Positions 59,258-63,906 of a stretch of DNA of 64,000 nucleotides are shown here, one piece after another. Below the pieces are notes generated by a model, which did no database searches, was not told where the DNA came from, and was given only the letters and a program-made list of their open reading frames with translations. The position numbers and the translations under genes were made by a program. Position 1 is the stretch's first letter, and every line of letters begins with the position of its first letter. The DNA is from Oscillospiraceae bacterium (GTDB lineage: Bacteria > Bacillota > Clostridia > Oscillospirales > CAG-272), in assembly GCA_015063325.1 (NCBI GenBank), contig SVUK01000006.1, forward strand, positions 140,654-204,653. Direction: 5' to 3'.

Positions 59258-61903
59258 ATGGCAAAGAAGTATTGCTATCTGTTCACCGAAGGTGATGCCA
59301 GCATGCGCAACCTGCTGGGCGGCAAAGGCGCAAACCTTGCGGAAATGACCAAGATCGGTCTCCCGGTTCCCCAGGGCTTCACCATTTCCACTGAGGCTTG
59401 CACGCAGTATTATGAGGACGGCAGAACCATCAACGATTCCATCATGGCGGAGATCATGAAAAACGTTGAAAAAATGGAAGAGATCAACGGCAAAAAGTTC
59501 GGCGATCTTAAAAATCCGTTGCTCGTTTCTGTTCGTTCCGGCGCTCGCGCTTCCATGCCGGGTATGATGGATACCATCCTGAACCTCGGTTTGAACGACG
59601 ATGTAGTTGCCGCAATGATCAAAGGCAACCCCGATCCCGCATTCGAGCGTTTCGTATACGACTCTTACAGACGTTTCATTCAAATGTTCTCCGACGTCGT
59701 TATGGAAGTTGGCAAGAAGTATTTTGAACAGCTGATCGACAAGATGAAAGAGCAGAAGGGCGTGAAGTTCGACGTTGATTTGACCGCCGCTGACCTCAAA
59801 GAGCTTGCCGGACAGTTCAAAGCAGAATACAAGAAACAGTTGGGCAAAGATTTCCCGAGCGATCCGAAGGAACAGCTCTACGAAGCAATTCGCGCCGTCT
59901 TCCGCTCTTGGGACAACCCCCGTGCCAACGTTTATCGCCGCGACAACGACATTCCGTACTCTTGGGGTACCGCCGTCAACGTGATGCCGATGGTGTTCGG
60001 TAACCTGAACAACAATTCCGGTACAGGCGTTGCTTTCACGCGCGACCCTGCAACCGGCGAAAAGAAACTGATGGGCGAATTCCTCGTCAATGCACAGGGC
60101 GAAGACGTTGTTGCAGGCGTTCGTACCCCGATGCCTATCGCACAGATGGAAAAACAGTTCCCCGAAGCTTACGCACAGTTCGTTGAAGTTTGCGGAATTT
60201 TGGAGAACCGTTACCGCGATATGCAGGATATGGAATTCACCGTTGAAAACGGCAAACTCTATATGCTTCAGTGCCGCAACGGTAAGAGAACCGCACAGGC
60301 AGCTCTCCAAATCGCATGCGACCTCGTTGACGAAGGCATGAGAACCGAGAAGGAAGCCGTTCTGATGATCGATCCTCGTAACCTTGACACGCTTCTGCAC
60401 CCACAGTTTGACGCAAAAGCTCTCAAAGCCGCAAAACCGCTCGGTCGCGGTTTGGGCGCTTCTCCCGGAGCCGCTTGCGGACAGATCGTCTTCACCGCTG
60501 ATGATGCCGAGGCTTGGAAGAAAGCCGGCAAGAAGGTCGTCCTCGTTCGCTTGGAGACCTCTCCCGAAGATATCACCGGTATGAAAGCCGCACAGGGCAT
60601 TCTGACCGTTCGCGGCGGTATGACCTCTCACGCAGCCGTCGTTGCTCGCGGTATGGGTACCTGCTGCGTTTCCGGATGCGGCGACATTGTTATGGACGAG
60701 GAGAACAAGAAGTTTACCCTCGCCGGCAAGACCTTCCATGAAGGCGACGTCATCTCCATCGACGGTTCCACCGGTAACATTTACGGCGAAGCCATCGCAA
60801 CCGTTGACGCCACCATCGGCGGCAACTTCGGACGCATCATGGCTTGGGCTGATAAATATCGCAAACTCAAGGTCCGCACCAATGCCGACACGCCGCGCGA
60901 CGCAAAGAAAGCGCGCGAGCTGGGCGCCGAGGGCATCGGACTTTGCCGCACCGAGCATATGTTCTTCGAGCCGGATCGTATCGCAGCATTCCGCGAAATG
61001 ATCTGCTCGGATACCGTTGAGGAAAGAGAAGCTGCTCTTGCAAAGATTCTGCCCATGCAGCAGAGCGATTTCGAGAAACTCTACGAAGCTTTGGAAGGCT
61101 ACCCGGTTGTTATCCGCTTCCTGGATCCGCCGCTCCACGAGTTCGTTCCCACCACCGAGGAGGACATTGCTCTCCTCGCAAAGGCACAGGGCAAGACCGT
61201 TGAGCAGATCAAAGCGATTATCGCAAGCCTGCACGAGTTCAACCCCATGATGGGTCACCGCGGATGCCGCCTTGCAGTTACCTATCCGGAAATCGCCGCA
61301 ATGCAAACCCGTGCCGTCATTCGCGCCGCTATCAACACCAAGAAAGCTCACCCCGATTGGAATGTTGAACCCGAGATCATGATTCCGCTGGTTGGCGAAG
61401 TCAAAGAGCTCAAGTATGTCAAGAATACCGTCGTTAAAGTTGCCGACGAGGAAATTGCCGCCGCAAAGAGCAATCTGAAGTATCAGGTTGGTACCATGAT
61501 CGAGATTCCGCGCGCCGCTCTGACCGCCGATGAGATCGCAAAAGAAGCCGAATTCTTCTGCTTCGGTACCAATGACCTCACTCAGATGACCTTCGGCTTC
61601 AGCCGCGATGATGCCGGCAAATTCCTGGGCGCTTACTACGACGCCAAGATTTACGAGAACGATCCGTTTGCAAAACTCGACCAGGTCGGTGTTGGCAAAC
61701 TGATGAAGATGGCTGTTACTCTCGGTCGTGAAGCTCGTCCGGGCCTCTCCTGCGGTATCTGCGGAGAGCACGGCGGCGATCCCACGTCGGTTGAGTTCTG
61801 CCATGAGATCGGTCTGGACTACGTTTCCTGCTCGCCTTACCGTGTACCGATCGCACGCCTCGCCGCTGCACAGGCTGCAATCAAGGAAGCAGAAGCAAAA
61901 TAA
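59258..61903 (+). CDS. ppdK: Pyruvate, phosphate dikinase
   Basis: LLGGKGANLAEM, SVRSGARASMPGMMDT, RGGMTSHAAVVARG (phospho-His), GIGLCRTEHMF, FGTNDLTQ, GICGEHGG. Start 59258 after GGAGG. Confidence 0.99.
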   Translation: MAKKYCYLFTEGDASMRNLLGGKGANLAEMTKIGLPVPQGFTISTEACTQYYEDGRTINDSIMAEIMKNVEKMEEINGKKFGDLKNPLLVSVRSGARASMPGMMDTILNLGLNDDVVAAMIKGNPDPAFERFVYDSYRRFIQMFSDVVMEVGKKYFEQLIDKMKEQKGVKFDVDLTAADLKELAGQFKAEYKKQLGKDFPSDPKEQLYEAIRAVFRSWDNPRANVYRRDNDIPYSWGTAVNVMPMVFGNLNNNSGTGVAFTRDPATGEKKLMGEFLVNAQGEDVVAGVRTPMPIAQMEKQFPEAYAQFVEVCGILENRYRDMQDMEFTVENGKLYMLQCRNGKRTAQAALQIACDLVDEGMRTEKEAVLMIDPRNLDTLLHPQFDAKALKAAKPLGRGLGASPGAACGQIVFTADDAEAWKKAGKKVVLVRLETSPEDITGMKAAQGILTVRGGMTSHAAVVARGMGTCCVSGCGDIVMDEENKKFTLAGKTFHEGDVISIDGSTGNIYGEAIATVDATIGGNFGRIMAWADKYRKLKVRTNADTPRDAKKARELGAEGIGLCRTEHMFFEPDRIAAFREMICSDTVEEREAALAKILPMQQSDFEKLYEALEGYPVVIRFLDPPLHEFVPTTEEDIALLAKAQGKTVEQIKAIIASLHEFNPMMGHRGCRLAVTYPEIAAMQTRAVIRAAINTKKAHPDWNVEPEIMIPLVGEVKELKYVKNTVVKVADEEIAAAKSNLKYQVGTMIEIPRAALTADEIAKEAEFFCFGTNDLTQMTFGFSRDDAGKFLGAYYDAKIYENDPFAKLDQVGVGKLMKMAVTLGREARPGLSCGICGEHGGDPTSVEFCHEIGLDYVSCSPYRVPIARLAAAQAAIKEAEAK

Positions 61904-61935: not shown

Positions 61936-61975
61936 TGCAAGCCGCTGTGCCATTTGACACAGCGGCTTGTTTTAT
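61936..61975 (+). terminator. Terminator after ppdK
   Basis: caagccgctgtg-ccatttga-cacagcggcttg-tttt. Confidence 0.85.
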
Positions 61976-61999
61976 ATAATGATGGTTGCGTTTTGTCCC

Positions 62000-62028
62000 T
62001 TTACATTTTTTCATTTCTATCGTATAAT
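62000..62028 (+). promoter_or_regulatory. SigA promoter for the XRE-sigma4 / membrane protein pair
   Basis: TTTACA-17 nt-TATAAT. Confidence 0.7.
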
Positions 62029-62077
62029 ACAAGCGAAGACGTCTTCCGGGAAAATGCAGGGAAAGGAGAAAAAACTT

Positions 62078-62530
62078 TTGGATATTGCAAAAGCAATCGG
62101 CAAGCTCCGGGCGGATCAAAATCTATCGCAGGACGACCTTGCAAAAAAGCTGTTCGTTTCGCGCGATCTCATTGCAAAGTGGGAAACCGGAGCAAGACGC
62201 CCCGATTGGCAGACGATCGAAAGAATTGCAGCCGTTTTCGGGGTTTCTCCTTCTTTCATTGCCGATAAGAGCGAGTTGGTTATGAAGGAGCTTTCCAAAT
62301 GTTTGCCAAAGGATTGCCCAATGTCCGTTGCGGAGTTGATTCCCGTTCTCAATTCCTTTTTGGAACGCTTGACCGAAACTGAAGCAAACATATTTCTGCA
62401 AAGGTATTATTTTCTGAAAAATATTGCCGATATTGCTGTAATTTATCATTTGGGAAGTTCCCATGTTCGAACAATCCTTTCCAGAACTAGAAAAAAACTG
62501 AAAAAATACATCCGGGAGGTAGAAAAATGA
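62078..62530 (+). CDS. Hybrid regulator: N-terminal XRE (HTH_3) domain fused to an ECF-type sigma region 4
   Basis: LRADQNLSQDDLAKKLFVSRDLIAKWETGARRPD (XRE), then ELSKCLP...LNSFLERLTETEANIFLQRYYFLKNIADIA...VRTILSRTRKKLK (sigma 4). TTG 62078 after AAGGAG; ATG 62054 is an alternative. Confidence 0.8.
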   Translation: MDIAKAIGKLRADQNLSQDDLAKKLFVSRDLIAKWETGARRPDWQTIERIAAVFGVSPSFIADKSELVMKELSKCLPKDCPMSVAELIPVLNSFLERLTETEANIFLQRYYFLKNIADIAVIYHLGSSHVRTILSRTRKKLKKYIREVEK

Positions 62531-63819
62531 AAAAATCAAAATTGTTTGATGCCATTGCGCAAATCGACGATCATTTCATTGACCGTTGCCTGCAAGATGA
62601 AAGAGCAGCGGCAGAAAAAAATGATGAAAAGACATTGCCGTCGCCCAAATCGGTCGCCTTAAAAAAGGCGGCGCTCATTGCAGTGTCGGTTGTTTTGATC
62701 CTTGCAATTTCGATATCGGTGACAATTTTTCTTTCCAATCGACCGCGCGATTCAATCGTATCCGATCATGGATTAAATATTGGCTTTGACGGTCTTCAAA
62801 TTGAAAATCGCGGTGCAAAGCTTGTTGTGCAAACAGAAAAATCAAAAATTCAGGTTGGAGAAGATCTGCCGGTCTCGTTCTATTGCATTTGCGGAGCCGA
62901 AGAGGAGTATGCCCAAAACACGCCGAAGACCGCGACTGCCGAAATTTTGATGTCTTACACCGGCGTAGCTCAGGATAAAATCGTTGAAACGGTTCAAAAA
63001 ATCAACGATGCAACGACACGTGATTATACTTGGAACGGTAGCTTTGAAAGTATCAAAAACGAGCAAATGGTTGTTTCCACCGAAATTTTCAGCAAAGGGT
63101 ATGATTCAGTCAACTCTTCCAATGGGGGAAGCGGCGTACTCGTCTGGGCGCTGGAAGTTGAAAAGAAATATGCCGATGGAAGCAAGAAAACCGATCAGGA
63201 CAGTGTTGCGCTTTATTATCAGATCGTCGGTGACGAGATTTATCTAACTCCCGGTGATGAGACTTTGATGCTTGCCCGATCGGCGGTTCAAAAAATGGGA
63301 GAGGGAGTTTGTTTTTTTGGTTCTTCAAGGGTAGATGAAACAACTCAATCTGTTTATGATCATGATAAATGGGTAGCACCCGAAACAATCACGCTGGAAA
63401 CGAGAAATGACGCCGCAATCGCGCTGATCAAAGTGTATGAAGAACTTTTAGCCGAGTACCGTTCGTTAGACCTTGAACGAGTTTATCGGGTGGCACATGA
63501 GGACTACGAACTGCTGAACAAATTGATCGCAGAGGGAAGAAGGGATGAATATCAAAAGCCGGTTTATGACGATGAATTTTTAAGAACGTTTTATTTGGGA
63601 AATGTTCGCCGCGTCATCGAGGCATTGCTTTCATTGGACTGCTATTATGATCAACTTGACGAGCCGATGATTGAGCGTATGCTTACCGACTTTGAAGAAT
63701 ACGCCGCAGTCGAATACGCCGCTCAATGCAAGATTTTCGATGATGCAACGCCAAGGGTACTGTTTTATATGTATCGCGAAACCAGAAACACGAATGAACA
63801 CTTCATCTCGTGGACATAA
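62527..63819 (+). CDS. Single-pass membrane protein with an anti-sigma-like N-terminus and a large extracellular region
   Basis: MKKSKLFDAIAQIDDHFID N-terminal helix, TM AALIAVSVVLILAISISVTIFL, ~360 aa external region; ATGA overlap with the upstream gene. Confidence 0.65.
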   Translation: MKKSKLFDAIAQIDDHFIDRCLQDERAAAEKNDEKTLPSPKSVALKKAALIAVSVVLILAISISVTIFLSNRPRDSIVSDHGLNIGFDGLQIENRGAKLVVQTEKSKIQVGEDLPVSFYCICGAEEEYAQNTPKTATAEILMSYTGVAQDKIVETVQKINDATTRDYTWNGSFESIKNEQMVVSTEIFSKGYDSVNSSNGGSGVLVWALEVEKKYADGSKKTDQDSVALYYQIVGDEIYLTPGDETLMLARSAVQKMGEGVCFFGSSRVDETTQSVYDHDKWVAPETITLETRNDAAIALIKVYEELLAEYRSLDLERVYRVAHEDYELLNKLIAEGRRDEYQKPVYDDEFLRTFYLGNVRRVIEALLSLDCYYDQLDEPMIERMLTDFEEYAAVEYAAQCKIFDDATPRVLFYMYRETRNTNEHFISWT

Positions 63820-63837
63820 AACCAAATAAAAAATCGA

Positions 63838-63876
63838 AAAAACCGCTGTGACGTTTTGTTACGGCGGTTTTTTACA
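63838..63876 (+). terminator. Terminator after the two-gene unit
   Basis: aaaaaccgctgtgac-gtttt-gttacggcggtttttt. Confidence 0.8.
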
Positions 63877-63906
63877 AAACAGAACCAAATTATTTGTGGC
63901 AAAGTC

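Follow-up and report, generated by a model that had tools for sequence, protein, structure and literature searches.

A two-gene operon was examined in a 64,000-nucleotide stretch of DNA (the window) from an Oscillospiraceae bacterium (GenBank assembly GCA_015063325.1, contig SVUK01000006.1, positions 140,654 to 204,653 of the forward strand). In gene 1 a helix-turn-helix (HTH) domain of the Cro/C1 (XRE) type is joined to region 4 of a sigma factor (sigma4), and gene 2 encodes a single-pass membrane protein. The operon is probably a self-contained, autoregulatory transcription-factor module that derives from an extracytoplasmic function (ECF) sigma factor system, is controlled from the membrane and probably acts by activation. 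This reading is based upon the domain composition of gene 1, a bipartite promoter motif found at homologous loci, covariation between regulator residues and motif bases, and a helix that gene 2 has in common with the membrane partners of ECF sigma factors. The motif and the covariation are new here and were absent from an earlier, preliminary description of the operon.

Domain architecture of the regulator

The regulator combines two DNA-binding domains that are each recognized by Pfam. With residues numbered on the 158-residue reading from an ATG, not on the 150-residue protein from the TTG, HTH_3 matched residues 17-68 with 45.6 bits (Pfam cut-off 23, E = 7.5e-12) and Sigma70_r4 matched residues 103-151 with 42.5 bits (cut-off 24.1, E = 4.7e-11). 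A match to Sigma70_r4_2 scored 32.4 bits (cut-off 25.7, E = 7.1e-8), and the two region 4 matches together span residues 102-151. Pfam detected no Sigma70_r2, residues 17-68 being occupied by HTH_3, and no LytTR domain. The generic ECF model of NCBIfam, TIGR02937, scored below its cut-off and aligned only from model position 106 to 164, within the C-terminal third of the gene. An XRE HTH followed by sigma region 4 without region 2 had been claimed in the preliminary description, and this architecture was confirmed, since both domains exceed their Pfam thresholds and Sigma70_r2 is missing. The TTG at 62078, likewise proposed there, was retained as the true start of gene 1 because all 30 of the 30 aligned homologues begin with M(D/N)IAKAI.

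The AlphaFold model of gene 1 (predicted local distance difference test, pLDDT, 91.2; predicted template modelling score, pTM, 0.75) contains a five-helix XRE head and a sigma4 of four helices, joined by a linker helix. Foldseek searches with the whole model gave matches at the level of the XRE domain only, and C.AhdI, C.BclI, CapH and ClgR superposed with a root-mean-square deviation of 1-2 Å over approximately 60 residues. For the C-terminal half, a phmmer search of the PDB with that half alone returned nothing and a profile search was required. The profile retrieved sigma region 4 chains exclusively, including region 4 of SigL crystallised with the anti-sigma factor RslA (3hug). The identity of the C-terminal half as sigma region 4, a point on which the preliminary description depended, was therefore upheld by both the Pfam scores and the profile search. 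In the linker between the two domains E79 and L80 are invariant, and C83 and P85 are kept in at least 90% of sequences.

A conserved bipartite promoter motif

Alignment of the upstream regions of 85 loci revealed a motif of 17 bp composed of two boxes, G-N-T-R-C-R-T-T-T-T-G-T-(C/A)-C-C-T-T. The strict pattern was present in 80 of the upstream regions and the other five contained recognisable variants. The motif ends in TT, and with these two bases the -35 hexamer begins. Its register to both the -35 and the -10 is fixed, and the centres of the two boxes are approximately 9-10 bp apart, about one helical turn. Across the 80 loci the promoter spacer is 16-18 bp long; 57 of them have a perfect TATAAT at -10, and 20 match it at five of six positions. 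The -35 is TTGACA at none of these regulator promoters (five of six matches in 31, four of six in 27, and three or fewer in 22). The fusion promoters read TT(T/G)AC(A)-16/18-TATAAT and do not have the AAC-like -35 and CGT-like -10 of an ECF-type autoregulated promoter; nor is the site a palindromic operator as for an XRE dimer, the conserved sequence being asymmetric with two different boxes.

A position weight matrix trained without the window was used to scan the 1.68-Mb source genome. The site at 61985-62001 scored 33.4 bits, and the next-best site, C11:45005, scored 18.6 bits and has no promoter geometry. Given these scores, the source genome contains no confident target other than the operon itself. 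In two other genomes that carry several paralogues each (G256 and G336), motif and promoter were also found before four non-regulator genes for lipoproteins or secreted proteins, which looks like a small envelope regulon. The products at these target loci (L128, L130/L136, L132 and L134) have no assigned function, and those of L128 and L130 are distant homologues. A looser 16-mer pattern with one mismatch gave counts near the control in 61 family genomes.

Proposed assignment of the boxes to the two domains

Protein columns were compared with motif positions by mutual information in 77 regulator-promoter pairs. Base -38 (C/A) was best paired with residue 38 of the XRE recognition helix: 51 pairs combine D with C and 21 combine E with A, leaving five exceptions (72/77 in agreement), and the next-best protein column was far weaker. 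The pairing was significant when permuted within clusters of 60% identity (p = 0.0003), and the five exceptions are recent D-to-E changes. This permutation was used in place of a strict independent-pairs test, for which there were too few pairs and the tree of a 150-residue protein was poorly resolved. In the distal box, bases -49, -48 and -47 were best paired with residues 144, 143, 140 and 137, which the sigma4 recognition helix presents on a single face. At base -49, 76 of the 77 loci combine either K144 with G or R144 with T/A, the remaining row having V144 with T. The statistics for sigma4 and the distal box are weak, as few independent events contribute to them. The residue-base covariation suggests that sigma4 reads the distal box and the XRE domain the proximal box. 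An alignment anchored on the -35 of the sibling ECF promoters described below was partly successful; both boxes resemble that -35 loosely, and no assignment of domain to box was obtained from it.

Probable descent from an ECF sigma family

Sequence comparison indicates that gene 1 probably descends from an ECF sigma family common in Oscillospirales, with a Cro/C1 HTH substituted for region 2 and the linker and region 4 retained. Among full sigma factors, the nearest (P0055 to P0057) share with gene 1 the linker (D/E)EL..CLP and the region 4 motif RRY(F/W)(F/Y)...ILSRTRKKLK. This sibling family occurs in 42 of 101 genomes of the order, with up to nine copies, and is absent from the source genome. 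In all 30 fetched sibling loci the next gene encodes a single-pass protein, mostly through an ATGA overlap, and these partners open with M(K/N)..(L/I)(F/Y/L).A(I/L)G.(I/A)DD.(L/Y)(I/V).EA, the same helix as is found in the partners of the fusion proteins. A hidden Markov model built from the 30 N-termini identified 58 of 77 fusion partners at E <= 1e-3. Among 5352 frames of at least 100 residues in the source genome, gene 2 was its sole significant match (19.7 bits; next 12.1 bits), in agreement with the likeness of the LFDAIAQIDD.FI helix to ECF-partner N-termini noted in the preliminary description. In a tree of linker and sigma4 the 77 fusion proteins form one clade (Shimodaira-Hasegawa-like approximate likelihood ratio test, SH-aLRT, 86), a topology that fits one replacement event for region 2. 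The previously suggested swap of region 2 for an XRE domain accordingly holds on the common linker and region 4, the common partner helix and the single clade.

The sibling ECF promoters (L137-L166) are of ECF type, with a TGT(A/C)A(G)..TT -35 followed by a GTCT(T/A)TATAGGTGAAGG -10 region that is conserved over an unusual length. In two sibling partners (L160 and L164) the helix motif KLF.A...IDD.LI..A is present twice in tandem before the transmembrane helix. The only true ECF gene of the source genome, an unrelated one outside the window (C17:189235-190433), encodes 199 residues and overlaps a gene for a 200-residue single-pass partner with an unrelated N-terminus. The source genome contains seven region-2 frames, and the six in addition to this ECF gene resemble SigA and sporulation sigma factors by size.

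The membrane partners

Coupling of the regulator to a membrane protein is nearly universal. At 79 of 81 loci examined, the next gene begins within a few bases, mostly with ATGA, and encodes a conserved N-terminal helix and a transmembrane helix. The partners open with M..(L/M)(F/Y)(D/N)A...ID(D/E).(L/I)(I/V)DR, a helix of approximately 25 residues, followed by the membrane span at approximately residues 30-75 and an extracellular part of approximately 100 to more than 900 residues. Beyond the N-terminus they are mutually unrelated (10-15% identity), with the N-terminal helix as the sole common segment. Pfam assigned only Serpin, LRR_5, LRR_8 (one match) and a single weak CUX1_N among the 77 partners, the others having no family. 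Six of them carry a full serpin domain outside the membrane (including L005:5450-6904), and BspA-type leucine-rich repeats are present in four. For the serpin type, anchorage in the membrane and coupling to a transcription factor suggest that extracellular proteases are sensed.

Gene 2 had been described as an N-terminal helix, one transmembrane helix and an ectodomain that is beta-rich and then helical, and its AlphaFold model (pLDDT 78.6; N-terminal helices at residues 5-31) has this layout. No family match was obtained for gene 2 in Pfam, NCBIfam, PADLOC or PHROGs. Specifically, no recognised anti-sigma domain (zf-HC2, RsgI_N, RskA, DUF4179 and others) was detected in it with Pfam and NCBIfam, and Foldseek found no convincing relative in the PDB (TM-scores <= 0.20). 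Its 33 homologues, at 37-97% identity, likewise have no Pfam family.

Distribution of the family

The same architecture was found in at least 50 protein clusters (approximately 150 residues, 90% identity) in a word-indexed search, and an exhaustive profile search gave 133 representatives at E <= 1e-30, with about half of the top 150 being full-length at approximately 150 residues. A collection with one genome per species contained 141 loci with the fusion, nearly all from uncultured rumen and gut Clostridia labelled Ruminococcus RUG, Acutalibacteraceae, Oscillospiraceae, Faecousia or Mageeibacillus. Distribution within the order of the window is patchy (7 of 301 genomes), with up to six copies in some genomes and a single copy without paralogues in the source genome. 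The gene 1 protein was found identical on two contigs.

Several loci depart from the common pattern. One fusion protein (P0054, L009:4001-4447) has a degenerate XRE head without an HTH_3 match, and no membrane gene lies downstream of it. At L058 and L072 a gap of approximately 165 bp follows the fusion gene, and an unrelated open reading frame takes the place of the usual partner. Four near-identical loci (L078, L081, L086 and L093) have a common motif, GATACAAATTGTACCTT, and a common partner type of 150 residues. The bins that hold them are labelled Paludibacteraceae, Butyricicoccaceae, Phascolarctobacterium and Muribaculaceae, a spread that points to mislabelled bins or recent transfer.

Proposed mechanism and alternatives

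In the proposed mechanism both HTH domains of the regulator, which is probably monomeric, would engage the DNA. Sigma4 would read the distal box G-TRCR-TTTT (-50 to -41) and the XRE domain the proximal box GT(C/A)CC-TT (-40 to -34), and the regulator would act as a class-II-type activator with positive autoregulation of its own operon. Gene 2, coupled 1:1, would keep the regulator inactive at the membrane, its N-terminal helix presumably docking on the linker and sigma4 in the manner of the sigma/anti-sigma pair from which the module derives. Regulated proteolysis or a conformational change, set off by a signal at the variable ectodomain, would then free the regulator. M50 site-2 proteases are encoded in the genome, which permits regulated proteolysis without showing it. 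Architecture, family, synteny, the helix common to the partners, the promoter motif and the residue-base covariation are established computationally. We infer the physical binding of partner and regulator, the mode of release, and activation as opposed to repression; for inhibition by the partner helix, the grounds are the universal coupling, the helix common to ECF partners, and the retention of sigma4 and linker. Activation is the likelier sign and is favoured over repression, which is considered rather unlikely, because of a site geometry like those of lambda cI and LytTR regulators together with a perfect -10 and an imperfect -35. A near-perfect -10 combined with a non-consensus -35 fits dependence on an activator.

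Several observations weigh against this mechanism. The assignment of sigma4 to the distal box comes from few independent evolutionary events, and the proximal box loosely resembles the sibling ECF -35 (TGTAAG/TGTCAG). Covariation between regulators and partner N-termini (mutual information with average product correction, 75 pairs) had no enrichment in sigma4. Many promoters match at five of six positions at -35 and six of six at -10; these may be strong unaided and would equally fit a repressor. The anti-sigma role of the sibling ECF partners is itself putative, and no curated family exists for them.

The same module could operate with the opposite sign. XRE-sigma4 would then be a repressor, with an operator that reaches into the upstream edge of the -35; sequestration would derepress, and loss of the partner on signal would shut off the lipoprotein genes together with the operon. 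Autorepression is typical of XRE-family proteins, the motif does overlap -35/-34, and a five-of-six -35 at 31 of 80 promoters, a perfect TATAAT at 57 of 80 and a full TTGACA at the target promoter L132 are all compatible with repression. However, the -35 upstream of regulator genes is never consensus and has three or fewer matches in 22 of 80, a repressor produced 1:1 with the partner that sequesters it would have no obvious regulatory effect, and a shut-off switch would control only itself in the source genome, where the operon is the sole target. Moreover, ancestral ECF logic and LytTR regulatory systems both work by positive feedback (PMC6193735), and repression is regarded as an uncertain and rather unlikely alternative. 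Lower still is the probability that no sequestration takes place, with gene 1 as a dedicated regulator of the downstream surface protein and the partner N-terminus serving membrane insertion or another contact. Such an arrangement would agree with the operon being the sole strong target in the source genome and with the lack of sigma4 enrichment in the 75 pairs, and the binding of partner to regulator is itself putative. Against it, the helix is the only conserved part of the partners and is common to 30/30 sibling ECF partners, ATGA coupling is almost universal, and the complete sigma4 and linker have been retained, for which a retained docking surface is the simplest explanation.

Very little weight is given to the possibility that region 4 still acts on RNA polymerase, whether the protein is a sigma-like subunit in which the XRE domain takes over from region 2 or an appropriator that drives sigmaA region 4 off the beta-flap. 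Conservation of the linker and of the region 4.1-like RYYF motif is as high as in true ECF siblings, but the protein has no region 2 for -10 melting or core binding, no region-2 gene was found near the operon and only seven region-2 frames exist in the genome, and the -10 is a sigmaA-type TATAAT, not the GTCT(T/A)TATAGG of sibling ECF promoters. The distal box lies approximately 15 bp upstream of the position of holoenzyme-bound region 4. From this position, the sigmaA-type -10 and the lack of region 2 within the protein or nearby, the regulator is read as a transcription factor and not as a sigma factor or appropriator. The 'sigma-appropriating factor' entertained in the preliminary description is consequently disfavoured, with the sigma4-covarying box at -50 to -45 being approximately 15 bp too far upstream for flap-bound region 4. 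The chance is negligible that the fusion arose by chimeric assembly or recent deletion, or that it is a repressor cassette of a phage or plasmid. Matches to phage repressors were generic XRE matches only, PADLOC and PHROGs returned only generic HTH matches for gene 1, and no record among 50,697 phages and 72,556 plasmids covered at least 80% of its protein; a phage or plasmid cassette or a defence system was rejected on these grounds, and no mobility genes are present at the locus. A chimera or deletion fusion, which the preliminary description had asked to be checked, was rejected since the fusion is a conserved family, kept down to approximately 40% identity over the 141 species-level loci.

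A broader and more speculative extension of the membrane-controlled activator, somewhat less likely than not to be correct in full, is that XRE-sigma4 regulators and helix-bearing partners constitute a distinct class of transmembrane signalling beside the ECF and LytTR systems. Sigma4 may have been exapted twice, as a DNA-reading head one helical turn upstream of sigmaA region 4 and as a portable docking handle for an anti-sigma helix. The 'sensor' may also be an effector that serves as bait or shield at the cell surface, and once it is captured or cleaved the regulator would be freed to replenish it, given that the operon is its own only target here and that some ectodomains are of serpin or leucine-rich repeat type.

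Relation to known regulatory systems

The closest known relatives are ECF sigma factors with single-pass anti-sigma factors (B. subtilis SigW/RsiW and SigV/RsiV, with the P0055 family as direct sibling), to which region 4 and the linker are homologous. Further similarities include a translationally coupled two-gene operon, an N-in single-pass partner whose ectodomain is variable and whose cytoplasmic N-terminal helix is short, a cis site within the promoter of the operon itself, and envelope or secreted-protein targets. In contrast to these systems, the fusion has no region 2 and hence cannot be a sigma factor, and its promoter is of sigmaA type with an upstream operator instead of AAC/CGT type. 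XRE-sigma4 proteins fall outside the published ECF census because the census required both sigma2 and sigma4 (PMC7826278).

LytTR regulatory systems consist of a membrane inhibitor and a regulator, and their sites just upstream of the -35 give positive feedback (PMC6193735). Like S. mutans HdrRM and BrsRM (PMC6193735), the XRE-sigma4 module has a non-sigma regulator and a putative transmembrane inhibitor in one operon with a site adjoining the -35 upstream, and the positive autoregulation of LytTR systems is proposed for it as well. The LytTR domain, however, reads direct repeats, whereas XRE and sigma4 would read two different boxes; the membrane inhibitors are unrelated, and ECF ancestry is absent in LytTR. 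The module would work like ECF and LytTR systems but belongs to neither.

Two further comparisons concern the regulator itself. Lambda cI at OR2/PRM is the archetype of a Cro/C1 protein with class II activation through sigma region 4, and its 17-bp site extends from approximately -50 to -34, overlapping the -35 by 2 bp. The site position, two HTH units one helical turn apart, and a promoter-proximal Cro/C1 HTH are common to both. The differences are that here one polypeptide with two different folds faces an asymmetric site, and that a membrane partner takes the place of the RecA-stimulated autocleavage of cI. B. subtilis SigO-RsoA is a two-subunit sigma factor that, as do other split sigma factors, includes a region-4-bearing protein without a functional region 2. 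Unlike these split sigma factors, the fusion has no region-2 partner nearby, and its promoter geometry does not suit a holoenzyme-bound region 4.

The full-text literature searched gave no published account of a regulator that combines HTH_3 with Sigma70_r4 and is paired with a membrane protein, and the family in gut and rumen Clostridia is apparently undescribed. If the proposed mechanism is correct, the sigma/anti-sigma interface is a modular switch that can be moved onto a non-sigma transcription factor, and the regulator is a natural monomer with two different HTH folds that read adjacent boxes. More than 140 species-level loci with diverse, mostly uncharacterised ectodomains would also be added to the sensory repertoire of uncultured gut and rumen Clostridia. 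The candidate residue-base code (D/E38 with C/A at -38; K/R144 with -49) is directly testable and could find use in synthetic circuits.

Operon layout

The operon is a compact unit of promoter, gene 1, gene 2 and terminator placed after ppdK, which stops at 61903 and has its own terminator at 61937-61970; ppdK and the operon's own terminator are its immediate neighbours. The gene 1 stop and gene 2 start overlap as ATGA at 62527-62530. Each element of the self-contained unit claimed in the preliminary description, namely SigA promoter, ATGA overlap and terminator, was located (Table 1).

Table 1. Coordinates of the operon features in the window.
Feature	Position	Strand	Basis or remark
17-bp bipartite candidate operator GTTGCGTTTTGTCCCTT	61985..62001	+	promoter -50 to -34
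Distal box, GTTGCG + T tract	61985..61994	+	proposed sigma4 HTH target
Proximal box, GTCCCTT	61995..62001	+	proposed XRE HTH target
SigmaA-type promoter	TTTACA 62000-62005, 17-bp spacer, TATAAT 62023-62028	+	11/12 consensus matches
Perfect palindrome GAAGACGTCTTC at predicted transcription start	62035..62046	+	
Gene 1 ribosome-binding site GGAAAGGAGA	62061-62070	+	precedes TTG start
Gene 1, XRE-sigma4 regulator, 150 residues, TTG start	62078..62530	+	
Cro/C1 (XRE) HTH domain, recognition helix VSRDLIAKWETG	62102..62257	+	Pfam HTH_3, Foldseek
Linker, probably inherited from ECF sigma (ELVMKELSKCLP...)	62267..62347	+	
Sigma-70 region 4 domain, recognition helix HVRTILSRTRKKLK	62357..62506	+	Pfam, PDB profile search
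Gene 2, single-pass N-in membrane partner, 430 residues	62527..63819	+	
Cytoplasmic N-terminal helix (KLFDAIAQIDDHFIDRCL...), anti-sigma-like handle	62536..62619	+	
Transmembrane helix	62665..62736	+	hydropathy, AlphaFold helix residues ~41-70
Ectodomain: beta-sandwich residues 98-242, helical domain 246-419	62818..63783	+	AlphaFold
Intrinsic terminator, hairpin (63837-63873) then U run	63837..63879	+	-22.4 kcal/mol, z = -5.5

The palindrome at the predicted transcription start was also considered as an RNA hairpin, which was rejected as no stable hairpin formed. The orthologue clade and one further locus (L003) retain it, either as GAAGATATCTTC or as GTAGATATCTAC, and it is missing from other clades; a dimeric protein might use it as a second operator.

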